64,000 bases of DNA, from IMG/VR virus record IMGVR_UViG_3300014613_000020, positions 1 to 64,000 of that record, one strand, 5' to 3'. The notes under the pieces are model-generated. The model was not told the origin of the DNA and did not search any database. It saw only the letters and a list, made by a program, of their open reading frames with translations. Below are positions 24,924 through 59,645 of this stretch, piece by piece. Position 1 is the first letter of the stretch. Every line of letters begins with the position of its first letter. The stretch comes from a virus. The position numbers were made by a program, and so were the translations under genes.

Positions 24924-25004
24924 GGGGATGAAATGGGGTCGATTCAGTTGAGAGCCCAAAGCGGCTGGCTGAAGACGGTGGTTCAATTCCACCCATCTCC
25001 ACCA
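24924..25004 (+). ncRNA. minimal tmRNA-like RNA (tRNA-like domain only)
   Basis: GGGGATG/CATCTCC acceptor with G3.U, ACCA end, stemless D-loop ending TCGA, GAC before T-arm GGTGG-TTCAATT-CCACC. Confidence 0.75.
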
Positions 25005-28907: not shown

Positions 28908-29150
28908 ATGTCAGACTCATACAGACACACGCCTGTGATTGGATTTTGTGGCAGCTGTTCTGAGAAATTCTACAAGGCACTCCGTAATGGACGGGAGCGT
29001 GTTCGTGTCAGGGGATTAATGGCAGTAGGCGAGTATGACATGCTAAAATTTGAGTTAGTTCCGTGGGACGAGTGGCAGACCATGCGTGATGGAAAGGTGT
29101 GGTTGGGTGTCGATGTGTGGTCAGAGAGTCCTATGTTGATGAGAAAGTGA
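28908..29150 (+). CDS. hypothetical protein
   Basis: ATG after AAGGA; MSDSYRHTP start. Confidence 0.5.
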   Translation: MSDSYRHTPVIGFCGSCSEKFYKALRNGRERVRVRGLMAVGEYDMLKFELVPWDEWQTMRDGKVWLGVDVWSESPMLMRK

Positions 29151-29152
29151 CA

Positions 29153-29207
29153 TTTACGTAAAATTTACGTTTGGGGTATTGACATTTGGTGGGTGGTGGT
29201 GTATACT
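29153..29207 (+). promoter_or_regulatory. sigma70 promoter with TTTACG tandem box
   Basis: TTGACA(29179)-17-TATACT. Confidence 0.75.
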
Positions 29208-29279
29208 GGTTGACAGTTGACTTTTGCACAAAAGACAAAAAAGACTGGCTAAAAACAATTATTTAATTCGAGGGTGCAT

Positions 29280-29513
29280 ATGCTAACAGTGTTTTCTAAA
29301 AGTGGTTGACATGGCTGTCATGAACTCGTTGGGTTCTTGGATGGCCTTGGTGAGCAGTACAAAGTTGTAGATGTGGATGCGCAACCACACGTGATAGAGT
29401 TTTTGCGCAAGAGGCTGAATGGGCAGTTTTTTGTTCCTGTGCTGCACGACAGTGTGTCCGGGCAGATACTAGCAGGATGGTCTAAGGAAGGTGTGGAGAA
29501 GTTCTTGGGATGA
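29280..29513 (+). CDS. glutaredoxin/NrdH-like selenoprotein (UxxC), 77 aa
   Basis: MLTVFSKSG-TGA-HGCHEL...YKVVDVD...VPVL...AGWS; in-frame TGA 29307-09 at the first CxxC cysteine. Confidence 0.8.
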
Positions 29514-29821
29514 TGTATTTTGATGAGCTTGGGTTCTACCACTATCACGATTATCAATCCAATGCTAGATGTTGGTGTGGATGGAGCATGGAAGGATATG
29601 AGAAAGTGAAGAAGATAGTATTTGATGTGATTTGTGGGTTGCCTATTAGCGGTCCATATTGGCATGGGCTAGAATACTTTGGACCTGATGAATGTGAGTG
29701 GATAGGTACGGTCGAAGCATATGGTATTGAAGATGCGTATGGCTTTGTTTGCCCTGCATGTGGGCAGACATTAAATGACGACATTCACTTCTGGAGTAGA
29801 AGGGAAGAATTGTGGTGGTAA
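29510..29821 (+). CDS. hypothetical zinc-binding protein
   Basis: ATGA overlap; CPACG. Confidence 0.5.
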   Translation: MMYFDELGFYHYHDYQSNARCWCGWSMEGYEKVKKIVFDVICGLPISGPYWHGLEYFGPDECEWIGTVEAYGIEDAYGFVCPACGQTLNDDIHFWSRREELWW

Positions 29822-30027: not shown

Positions 30028-30127
30028 TGCCTGGAAAGATGCTGTGGTGTGACAAGTGCAAGAAGTTCATTGTCCACATTTTTGATGGCAAGCTATGGAT
30101 ATGCCAGAGATGCGGGGGTGGAAAGAG

Positions 30128-31027
30128 ATGATACGAAGCTATCCGAAGATATACAATCTAGGTCACGCCGCCATAAAAGAGCTGTTCCTTGACGACGTGA
30201 TAGTAGAAGAGAAAATCGACGGGTCGCAAATTTCTTTCAGCCGGACCACAGAAGGTGAGTTGATGTGCCGCAGTAAGGGGAAGGACCAAAGTCCGGGCCA
30301 ACAGGACAAGATGTTTAACAAGGCCATAGAGACAATTCAGAGCATTCAGCATCTGCTAACTCCTGGGTGGACTTATCGTGGTGAGTACTTGCAAAACCCA
30401 AAGCACAACACCATCGCGTATGATAGGGTACCTGATAGACACATCATCATCTTTGACGTGGACGTGGGCATGGAAAGCTACATGTCTTATGAGATGAAGA
30501 GAGATGAGTCTCAGAGATTAGGATTGGAATGTGTTCCTGTACTGGCAGAGGGAATGTTCACAGACTATAATACATTTATGGAGTTGTTGGATACACCAAG
30601 TTGCCTTGGCGGGTCAACCATCGAAGGAGTTGTAATCAAGAACTATTCTCGGTGGGGGAGAGATAAAAAGGCGTTGATGGGAAAATATGTCTCTGAGAAG
30701 TTCAAGGAATCAAATAAATCGAATTGGACACCTAAGACCGGCAAGAGCATAATTCAAATCATCGGTGAGAGCCTACGGACAGAAGCGCGATGGAATAAGG
30801 CTATTCAGCATTTACGGGACAGTGGGGAACTTGTCAATGAACCAAAGGATATTGGCGGATTGATAAGAGAATTGCAGAGAGACGTGAAGGAAGAGTGTGA
30901 AGATGAGATAAAAGCAGCACTTTTTCAATGGGCGTGGAAGGATATATCTCGAATCGTTACATTTGGATTTCCGGAGCAATACAAACGACTACTCGCAGAG
31001 AGCCAATTTGAAAGAGAGAAATTATGA
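30128..31027 (+). CDS. RNA ligase (Rnl2-like nucleotidyltransferase)
   Basis: YPKI, EKIDGS (KxDG), FDV, EGVVIK, KY motifs. Confidence 0.8.
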   Translation: MIRSYPKIYNLGHAAIKELFLDDVIVEEKIDGSQISFSRTTEGELMCRSKGKDQSPGQQDKMFNKAIETIQSIQHLLTPGWTYRGEYLQNPKHNTIAYDRVPDRHIIIFDVDVGMESYMSYEMKRDESQRLGLECVPVLAEGMFTDYNTFMELLDTPSCLGGSTIEGVVIKNYSRWGRDKKALMGKYVSEKFKESNKSNWTPKTGKSIIQIIGESLRTEARWNKAIQHLRDSGELVNEPKDIGGLIRELQRDVKEECEDEIKAALFQWAWKDISRIVTFGFPEQYKRLLAESQFEREKL

Positions 31028-47440: not shown

Positions 47441-48523
47441 ATGAAAGCAATAGTAAATCAAGGAATGTTAGCTCACGGATTATCAATCGTTGGCAGGGCG
47501 GTGGCAGGAAGGTCAACTTTGCCAATTCTAGGCAATGTGATGGTGTCCACCGGTAGCGAAGGACTGACATTGTCAGCTACGAACTTGGAATTGATGATAA
47601 GTTGCAGAGTAACCGCGGAAGTGCGAGAAGAAGGTGCAACCACGATACCGGCAAGGACTCTGACAGACCTTGTCCGAGCTCTTCCCGACTCACCAATATC
47701 ACTGTCGGTGAGTGAGAATGAGAACACCACGTTGACGTGTGACGGGTCGAGATCACGAATAAAAGGGATACCTGCTGTTGAGTTCCCAAACATCTATCCG
47801 TTCCCCGAAGACAACTCCTTGACATTGTTGGGAATCGGTGGTATAATTAAACAAGTCGCAATGGCAGCGGCAACGGACACGTCAAGGCCGGTGTTGGAAG
47901 GTGTGTTGGTAGAACTGTCCGACAACAAACTCATCATGGCAGCGGCAGATGGATTCAGACTAGCGGTATGCAATGTGGATACAGGCGTTAACGGCAGCAT
48001 ATCTGTTATCATCCCCGCTAAAGCATTATCAGAAGTGGCGAAGATGGATGGTGAAGTTGAACTGTCACTGAGTGAGAACAGGGCATTCTTTAGAAGTGGG
48101 GGTGTGCTGTTGGTCACACAACTGATAGAAGGCAAGTTCCCCGACTATAACCAGATAATACCCAAGGATTGGACTACAAGGACCGAACTCAGGACTCAGG
48201 ACTTGTTGCACGCCGTCAGGATGGCGAGTGTGTTTGCGAGAGATTCGTCAGACATCATTAAATTGGCAGTTGATGAGAACAGTTGCGTCGTGTCGGCTCA
48301 GAGCGCTGAGACGGGTGACCATTCAGGCAAGATAGACGTGGATTCGGAAGGGAGTGACTTGCTGATAGGGGTGAATGGCAAGTATCTGATGGATTCACTG
48401 AGTGTGATGGGAACCGACAAAGTGACGATAGACATGCAGGGACCGTCAAATCCAATGGTGATTCGTCCTGTGGATGGTGGTGACCTGACGCACGTTGTGA
48501 TGCCAGTACATATATCAGAATGA
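47441..48523 (+). CDS. dnaN: DNA polymerase III beta sliding clamp
   Basis: STLPILGN, SATNLE, AADGFRLA, EGKFPDY, VVMPV. Confidence 0.95.
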   Translation: MKAIVNQGMLAHGLSIVGRAVAGRSTLPILGNVMVSTGSEGLTLSATNLELMISCRVTAEVREEGATTIPARTLTDLVRALPDSPISLSVSENENTTLTCDGSRSRIKGIPAVEFPNIYPFPEDNSLTLLGIGGIIKQVAMAAATDTSRPVLEGVLVELSDNKLIMAAADGFRLAVCNVDTGVNGSISVIIPAKALSEVAKMDGEVELSLSENRAFFRSGGVLLVTQLIEGKFPDYNQIIPKDWTTRTELRTQDLLHAVRMASVFARDSSDIIKLAVDENSCVVSAQSAETGDHSGKIDVDSEGSDLLIGVNGKYLMDSLSVMGTDKVTIDMQGPSNPMVIRPVDGGDLTHVVMPVHISE

Positions 48524-58448: not shown

Positions 58449-59645
58449 ATGAACTGGAAAATACCATTTAGCGGGCGCAGCCACAAATACACAAACTCAG
58501 AAATTGATACTGTTGTCGATACTATGCGGTTGGCAGACCCACTCACGCAAGGAAGATATAGGAATGAGTTTGAGAGGAAGTTCTCAAACTACCTAGAGAC
58601 AGGCAGTAGAAGCTATGCTGTATGCAATGCTACTGCGGCTTTGGAATTGGCTGCTCAGTTGTGTCAGTTTGACGATGGTGATGAGGTTATCATTCCTGCT
58701 CACACATTCACGTCAACGGCATACCCGTTTGTCAAATATGGTGCTAAAATCGTATGGGCGGACATAGATTCTGATACGCACGTTGTCACTGCGGATACTA
58801 TACATAAATGCATTACTGATAGGACGAAGGCTGTAGTGGTGGTGCATCTGTATGGGTACATGGCTGACATGCGGAATATCATTGAAAGTGTGCGAGATAT
58901 TCCTTTTGTGATAGAGGACGCTGCTCAGGCATTGGGGACCAAGCAGGTGATGTCGTCCGGACGTAGAGAGATTACTACGAATTGGTATCAGACGGCTGGC
59001 ACTTTTGGTGATTTTGGGGCATTCTCATTGCACTCACACAAGAATATCACAACATTGGGTGAAGGTGGTATTCTTTTAGACAATAAGGGATATGATGAAG
59101 TCATACCGATGCTACGCCATAATGGGCATTGTGGCTATCCGGAACGAGAAGATTACTGGATTCCTGCTATGGGGAATGTAGACCTGCCAATGCTGCAAGG
59201 CAAATATCTCATGCCCCACAACTTCTGTCTGGGTGAGGTAGAGTGTGCCCTTGGCACTCAATTGCTAAAACGAATAGACATTATCAATTATCAAAAACGA
59301 ACAAGAGCTATAGAATTTATTGATGCCCTTGCTGACTATCCGCAACTAAAATTCCACAGAGAACCGACAGAGAGACACAATTATCATCTGTTGGTCGCTG
59401 AGATGGTAGATGGGGACAGAGACGAGTTCATGCGTAAAATGGCATATGAGCATGGTATACAGTGTGTAGTACAGTATATGCCGCTATATAGATATCCACT
59501 TTATCAAAAATTGGGATTGGGGGATGCTGACTGCCCGGTGACAGACAAGTTCTATGACAATATGGTGTCGTTTCCATTCCAACACTCGCTGAATGATGGT
59601 GAGATAGACTACATGCTTGGATGTGTGAAGGAGAGCCTAGAATGA
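58449..59645 (+). CDS. DegT/DnrJ/EryC1/StrS PLP sugar aminotransferase
   Basis: NATAALE, VHLYG, IEDAAQ, FSLHSHKNITTLGEGG. Confidence 0.92.
   Translation: MNWKIPFSGRSHKYTNSEIDTVVDTMRLADPLTQGRYRNEFERKFSNYLETGSRSYAVCNATAALELAAQLCQFDDGDEVIIPAHTFTSTAYPFVKYGAKIVWADIDSDTHVVTADTIHKCITDRTKAVVVVHLYGYMADMRNIIESVRDIPFVIEDAAQALGTKQVMSSGRREITTNWYQTAGTFGDFGAFSLHSHKNITTLGEGGILLDNKGYDEVIPMLRHNGHCGYPEREDYWIPAMGNVDLPMLQGKYLMPHNFCLGEVECALGTQLLKRIDIINYQKRTRAIEFIDALADYPQLKFHREPTERHNYHLLVAEMVDGDRDEFMRKMAYEHGIQCVVQYMPLYRYPLYQKLGLGDADCPVTDKFYDNMVSFPFQHSLNDGEIDYMLGCVKESLE

Follow-up and report, generated by a model that had tools for sequence, protein, structure and literature searches.

Glutaredoxins with a UxxC active site are an established family of bacterial selenoproteins (PMC9312934, PMC13188914). 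The prototype selenoprotein glutaredoxin is cGrx1 of Clostridium oremlandii (PDB 7C10/7C12; PMC7642778), which is given as experimentally verified (PMC9312934, PMC13188914). Selenoproteins are also known from viruses, namely the glutathione peroxidases (GPx) of the molluscum contagiosum and fowlpox viruses (PMC8310308). For phages, a full-text literature search returned nothing relevant, and the words "phage", "virus" and "viral" are absent from the selenoproteome reviews of 2022 and 2026 (PMC9312934, PMC13188914); as far as our search could tell, a phage-encoded selenoprotein is unpublished. Here we describe a short phage gene for a glutaredoxin-like protein that is interrupted by a single in-frame UGA at 29307-29309. 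We consider it likely that this UGA is decoded as selenocysteine (Sec), with the caveat that direct evidence of Sec insertion or of translation is lacking.

If its UGA is read as Sec, the phage gene would share with cGrx1 a small single-domain glutaredoxin fold, Sec for the first active-site Cys and a stem-loop that follows the UGA within the ORF. It differs in that cGrx1 is a cellular gene with a U/CPxC active site, whereas the phage protein has UHGC and is ~19-20% identical to it; the phage gene has no adjacent MsrA-type partner and no selenium machinery in its own genome. With the poxvirus GPx genes it would have in common that a viral selenoprotein gene brings its own SECIS and relies on the Sec machinery of the host, but the poxvirus elements are of the eukaryotic type and their GPx was captured from animal hosts, whereas the putative phage element is of the bacterial type and lies inside the ORF. 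Cysteine-containing glutaredoxin-like proteins of phages (P0012/P0007 in phage G001; P0004 and P0013-P0015) are 32-42% identical over the full length and share the M(R)LTVF start, the C-x-x-C-H motif and the invariant cis-Pro. Unlike the gene described here, they carry a TGC or TGT codon and are called whole by gene finders. The NrdH-redoxin, YruB-family and Uxx-star models (TIGR02194, TIGR02196, NF041212) describe proteins of the same size and fold, but the phage protein has neither the CVQC nor the WSGFRP-type motif of NrdH, nor the second Sec that Uxx-star proteins have three residues from the C-terminus.

The window, by which we mean the whole 64,000-nucleotide stretch analysed, corresponds to the opening 64 kb of an IMG/VR virus record of 98,979 bp, for which CheckV gives a completeness of 100%. 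Its gene content (terminase, tail, DNA polymerase, DnaB, primase, dnaN and amidase genes) is that of a tailed phage, and nearly every gene lies on the + strand. The phage is present in groundwater metagenomes of several studies and is itself uncultured; every cultured phage is only distantly related to it, and neither the region nor the glutaredoxin protein had a match among cultured phages at the nucleotide or protein level. The sole tRNAs that it encodes are tRNA-Tyr and tRNA-His. We looked in the phage genome for a tRNA-Sec, a suppressor tRNA and selD and found none of them, and our search for a ribonucleotide reductase (RNR) large subunit and NrdD was likewise negative. The features of the locus are collected in Table 1.

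Table 1. Features of the glutaredoxin locus and its surroundings (window coordinates).
Feature	Position	Strand	Basis or remark
Promoter-like site, sigma-70 type, TTGACA-17-TATACT	29179..29207	+	11/12 consensus positions; consensus match only, function not shown
Shine-Dalgarno GAGGG	29270..29274	+	5 nt before ATG 29280
Glutaredoxin-fold gene, 77 codons, proposed active site U-H-G-C	29280..29513	+	Alignment, Pfam, AlphaFold2
In-frame TGA, proposed selenocysteine codon, residue 10, context UGA-C	29307..29309	+	Cys column in homologues
SECIS-like stem-loop, two-tier	29310..29349	+	RNAfold, -15.5 kcal/mol
Downstream 103-aa ORF, no Pfam family	29510..29821	+	Translationally coupled to the glutaredoxin gene via ATGA
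RNA ligase gene, synteny anchor	30095..31027	+	Cys-form orthologue of phage G001 at the same short distance upstream of its ligase
DNA polymerase III beta clamp, dnaN, host-lineage clue only	47441..48523	+	GTDB species-genome scan

The frame reads M-L-T-V-F-S-K-S-G, TGA, H-G-C-H-E and then 62 more codons, and the TGA at 29307-29309 is its sole internal stop. The promoter-like site lies ~72 nt upstream of the ATG, and an SD-like motif such as the one found here precedes 66% of the large ORFs of the phage vs 25% of random positions. The initial annotation had proposed that the frame opened by ATG 29280 stays open until it overlaps the next ATG and that the real gene is absent from the ORF listing. 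Both points hold: the terminal TGA (29511-29513) overlaps the start codon of the following ORF in an ATGA, and the standard listing has at this locus only a 58-aa ORF that starts at a TTG (29337-29513; P0001). A decaying frame downstream of the TGA, which would have spoken against a functional gene, was not seen, the frame being intact with a coding score of +10.4 vs -2.6 and -1.2 in the other two frames. Contigs from two further groundwater studies carry the same TGA, one with no differences over 29206-29449 (X4) and the other with a single difference, at 29340, over 29109-29417 (X6), and the TGA is therefore not a sequencing or assembly error. All samples that carry it represent strains that are at least 99% identical. 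Neither run X3 nor the RNA run X8 had a contig across the TGA, which is no evidence on absence or on expression. TGA is the commonest stop among the large ORFs of the phage (32 of 76), and when the whole genome was scanned, no second TGA-interrupted gene came up; both observations argue against a genome-wide code change, and global recoding (code 4 or 25) was ruled out on these grounds.

An exhaustive HMMER search together with a profile search recovered 13 full-length relatives. All 13 have Cys in the column of the TGA, which bears out the proposal that the TGA occupies the position of the first Cys of the CxxC motif. Homology flanks the TGA on both sides, the nine N-terminal residues and the 67 C-terminal ones each aligning, and members of the closer subfamily read M(R)LTVF...C-[HL]-[AG]-C-H where the phage gene reads MLTVF...U-H-G-C-H. 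One of these relatives, P0012, is encoded by G001 (IMGVR_UViG_3300017971_000228), a phage of 98,106 bp and 56.8% GC. From the 58 ORFs that it has in common with our phage, which are 24-66% identical, largely collinear and circularly permuted, we place G001 as a family-level relative. Its gene carries a TGC at 76888 in the motif CHACH and lies just upstream of an RNA ligase gene; judged by alignment and gene order, the two genes are an orthologous Sec/Cys pair between related phages. We found no hairpin at SECIS spacing after the TGC of G001. The large terminase of our phage has no match in G001, which points to an exchange of the packaging module between the two.

The nearest homologues, P0002 and P0003, come from two ENA contigs of 2,048 and 3,845 bp and are 61-64% identical to the phage protein. 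In both, the called start is the equivalent of Val29 of the phage protein, so that the gene calls are cut at the N-terminus; these two and the window gene are the only truncated members of the family. The run F-L-R-K-R-L-N-G-Q-F-F-V-P-V-L is unchanged in P0002 and has one change, Q to K, in P0003. The truncation fits what an upstream in-frame stop would produce, a view that rests on gene calls only. The DNA of these homologues was not seen, and conservation of the TGA and covariation of the hairpin in diverged homologues remain unproven. No relative came up in pattern scans of IMG/VR, whether run with the protein or with the homologue alignment, and the single match from a scan of JGI metagenomes was set aside as spurious, being high in GC and antisense to a large unrelated ORF. 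Around the RNA ligase genes of other phages, 27 loci held no close homologue within 5 kb of the ligase. Three of these loci (L023, L025 and L029; ~6.5-6.7 kb), belong to more distant phages that share the RNA ligase and encode, ~0.7 kb downstream of it, a NrdH-like redoxin of the ordinary CVQC type; in different forms, small redoxins thus recur around this ligase gene.

When the TGA is translated as Cys, the protein reaches 35.3 bits against the Pfam Glutaredoxin family (PF00462; cut-off 22.9) over residues 3-55, and we assign it by sequence to the glutaredoxin superfamily. AlphaFold2 predicts, with a pLDDT of 95.7, a beta-alpha-beta-alpha-beta-beta-alpha fold in which strand 1 spans residues 2-6, helix 1 spans residues 11-23 and residue 10 stands directly before the helix. 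The model has the marks of a thioredoxin-type fold: its active-site dyad lies at the N-terminal end of helix 1, and a conserved cis-Pro precedes strand 3; Pro53, at the cis-Pro position, is invariant across 16 sequences. Foldseek aligned the model to glutaredoxin and NrdH structures with TM scores of 0.8-0.87, and the best PDB match was cGrx1 itself (7c10; profile E 5.6e-14, Foldseek TM 0.83-0.87).

A finer placement failed. The best-scoring NCBIfam models were TIGR02196, TIGR02194 and NF041212, with bits vs cut-offs of 34.6/88.55, 27.5/85.75 and 25.8/66; the threshold for membership was reached neither for NrdH (27.5 bits vs 85.75 and 20.9 vs 131; TIGR02194 and NF007657) nor for Uxx-star (NF041212), and we rejected NrdH, YruB, mycoredoxin and Uxx-star alike, all scores being far below the cut-offs. 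The label of a UxxC NrdH/glutaredoxin, under which the gene was initially annotated, thus survives in its glutaredoxin half, which passes Pfam, and not in its NrdH half: the subfamily models stay below their cut-offs, NrdH membership would also call for an association with class Ib RNR (nrdEF), and since the phage has no RNR, the redoxin is not the NrdH partner of a phage enzyme. A second Sec near the C-terminus is absent, readthrough of the terminal TGA giving an unrelated tail, and the end of the ORF coincides with the end of the Cys homologues.

The hairpin GAACTC-GTT-GGGTTC that had been noticed 12 nt after the TGA is located at 29322-29336 and forms the upper tier of a larger stem-loop. 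A lower helix pairs 29313-29319 with 29340-29346; above it, a 6-bp stem, GAACUC/GGGUUC, pairs 29322-29327 with 29331-29336 and is closed by an apical GUU triloop (29328-29330) that begins 18 nt after the UGA. The bacterial SECIS consensus calls for a loop of 3-9 nt, an upper stem of 4-16 bp, a spacing of 16-37 nt, a G in the first two loop positions and an energy of at most -7.5 kcal/mol (PMC13188914). Every criterion quoted there is met by the phage hairpin, and on this count the suggested SECIS check succeeded; it did not with Rfam, where a search of 29150-29650, even at E <= 10, matched no family and no SECIS model. As background, 5.5% of 1,200 random TGA triplets of the genome meet loose criteria and 0.5% strict ones, and a GUN-triloop hairpin with a stem of at least 6 bp follows 14 of 2,259 genome TGA triplets (0.6%). 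When the 19 downstream codons were recoded synonymously, the native stability was equalled in 3.75% of trials, and the z-score for the fold of the whole region was only -1.94.

A phage without selenium genes would need a host that has them, and dnaN gave the one clue to the host lineage. In GTDB species genomes, ~27 of its 33 matches fell in the Chloroflexota, mostly in Anaerolineae/Caldilineaceae at 38-47% identity, and the rest were mostly CPR bacteria at 29-33%, including Gracilibacteria. The host is thus probably a Chloroflexota (Anaerolineae-like) bacterium, an inference from the sequence of a single gene in a word-based scan, a method by which not all phyla can be ranked; the host itself has not been identified. 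Other leads were discarded: Streptomyces phage TurkishDelight gives no host clue, since all that it shares with this phage is the terminase (52% identity) and a single small protein; searches with the DNA polymerase and a tail protein yielded weak, scattered matches; and the DegT aminotransferase, at ~60% identity across many phyla, does not discriminate between hosts.

The candidate host class has Sec machinery. In five of the closest genomes, all Anaerolineae/Caldilineaceae, selA scored above cut-off in 5/5, tRNA-Sec was found in 4/5, and selB and selD were above cut-off in 3/5 and 4/5, each selD with one in-frame TGA; in an even sample of the class Anaerolineae, selA was above cut-off in 172 of 201 genomes. 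The need for a Sec-competent host is therefore compatible with the lineage indicated by dnaN. The SECIS elements of the Anaerolineae selD genes have 7-bp stems with GUG, GUU or GUA triloops, except for one copy with a 6-bp stem and an AGUUA loop, and their stems differ between genomes by one compensatory A-U to G-C change. The apical GUN triloop of the phage hairpin is of the same type; the closing pair (C-G vs G-C) and the spacing (18 vs 33 nt) differ.

The scheme that we propose is that 29280-29513 is the gene of a glutaredoxin-like thiol-disulfide oxidoreductase of 77 residues whose active site is U-H-G-C. The stem-loop inside the ORF would recruit SelB and Sec-tRNA(Sec), by which the UGA would be decoded as Sec. 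The phage would provide the mRNA signal only, with SelA, SelB, SelC and SelD all coming from the host. The enzyme probably acts on a host disulfide or on an Msr/RNR-type partner, an inference drawn from the absence of an RNR in the phage itself.

A recent TGY-to-TGA nonsense mutation could instead have inactivated a phage glutaredoxin and left the hairpin as a coincidence, an explanation that we hold to be unlikely but that must be kept in view. From TGT or TGC to TGA takes one base change, the gene is accessory, not having been detected within 5 kb of the ligase in the 27 loci of other phages, the near-identity of the strains that carry the TGA leaves room for a lesion that arose recently within one clone, and there is no direct expression evidence. 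Against such a lesion, a random single-base nonsense mutation falls on this very codon in one of 25 possible paths and a SECIS-grade hairpin follows only 0.5-5.5% of TGAs, which makes the joint chance under a pseudogene ~2e-4 to 2e-3. The size of the scan tempers this figure: the finding was picked from a very large scan, and a rare chance coincidence is not excluded. The frame itself does not look abandoned, as it is intact beyond the TGA with a positive coding score, ends where the family ends and keeps its ATGA coupling, and the ~61%-identical nearest relatives, cut at the N-terminus and yet strongly conserved downstream, are unlike an old pseudogene. Recoding without selenium appears improbable to us. 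A near-cognate Trp or Cys tRNA reading UGA-C, or a SelB-dependent tRNA that inserts Cys, would yield a CxxC or WxxC protein in low amount. In well-studied bacteria, termination at UGA is weak when the next base is C, SelB-dependent tRNAs that insert Cys are known from some anaerobes, and the downstream hairpin could merely slow the ribosome. However, the UGA sits exactly at the catalytic Cys, and the hairpin has SelB-type features, with G-U opening a small apical loop at the correct spacing, and these agree with SECIS elements from the candidate host class; moreover, a protein with Trp as its catalytic residue would not be active, and no suppressor tRNA is encoded by the phage.

Two further readings concern the gene calls and the code. 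Very little speaks for two separate products, a 9-codon leader peptide that ends at the TGA and an independent 58-aa protein from TTG 29337, beyond the match to the gene-caller output. No SD precedes this TTG, its product would be left without strand 1, without the active site and without the greater part of helix 1 in what is a compact fold of one domain, and the nine codons upstream of the TGA align with the N-termini of the homologues (MLTVF vs M(R)LTVF). Hardly credible at all is a host with an alternative code that reads UGA as Gly or Trp (e.g. Gracilibacteria, code 25), even with a groundwater sample in which CPR bacteria are common and the few low-identity dnaN matches to them. Stop-codon usage and the lack of a second TGA-interrupted gene contradict it, an invariant Cys of the full-length homologues would be exchanged for Gly or Trp, and dnaN is much more similar to its Chloroflexota matches (up to 47% identity) than to those in CPR bacteria.

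The reading of the UGA as a Sec codon thus remains the one that we prefer, and the proposal of a phage selenoprotein in the initial annotation found support in the Sec/Cys pairing, the SECIS-like hairpin, the intact gene architecture and the recurrence of the TGA in independent samples. With some reserve, we also favour the wider reading that a tailed phage carries a genuine selenoprotein gene with a SECIS of the host's GUN-triloop type and draws on the Sec decoding of its probable Chloroflexota host. If this is true, selenocysteine recoding would extend to prokaryotic viruses, and phages would be able to exploit a specialised recoding pathway of the host. Phage fitness would then hinge on selenium supply and on the specificity of the host SelB, a new kind of host-range determinant, and a SECIS type matched to the host lineage could act as a marker for host prediction. 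Standard gene calling would systematically lose such genes from phages, as it does here, where a 58-aa stub replaces the real gene.

Searching 61 Anaerolineae genomes with the phage glutaredoxin protein gave no match at E <= 1e-6. Three of the five closest genomes have a UxxC glutaredoxin gene of ~80 residues with the active site U-Q-E-C and an in-frame TGA (L086, L087 and L090; minus strand of each locus, TGA at position 1543), which gene callers would truncate. The run GAGAGAGUUUCUCUC after this TGA is able to form a triloop hairpin; its minimum-free-energy fold gives a UUU loop, and a GUU triloop appears only in an alternative register found by eye. In one of the genomes (G004), all that there is of selB is a set of short fragments at ~30.6-36.0 kb of contig C4, two of which contain internal TGA stops; selA, tRNA-Sec and a UGA-containing selD are present despite this, and the selB could be broken or mis-assembled. 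In three Anaerolineae/Caldilineaceae genomes (G003 contig C134, G004 contig C1 and G005 contig C1; L041, L043 and L049), only 3.5-5.5 kb separate selA from the dnaN homologue most similar to the phage gene. This is probably just local gene order, but it curiously connects both markers on which the host-lineage clue draws.

Elsewhere in the phage genome lies the DegT aminotransferase gene (58449-59645), of which an ENA contig of 3.2 kb carries a partial homologue (P0038) at 83% identity. Going by this identity, the contig indicates that a much closer relative of the phage is present in the ENA data, and this relative is possibly the source of P0002 and P0003. Outside the glutaredoxin region, at 24924-25004, the Rfam tmRNA model (RF00023) matches with 51.4 bits vs a gathering score of 47. 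This 81-nt element spans model positions 1-374, which fits a tmRNA reduced to its tRNA-like domain.
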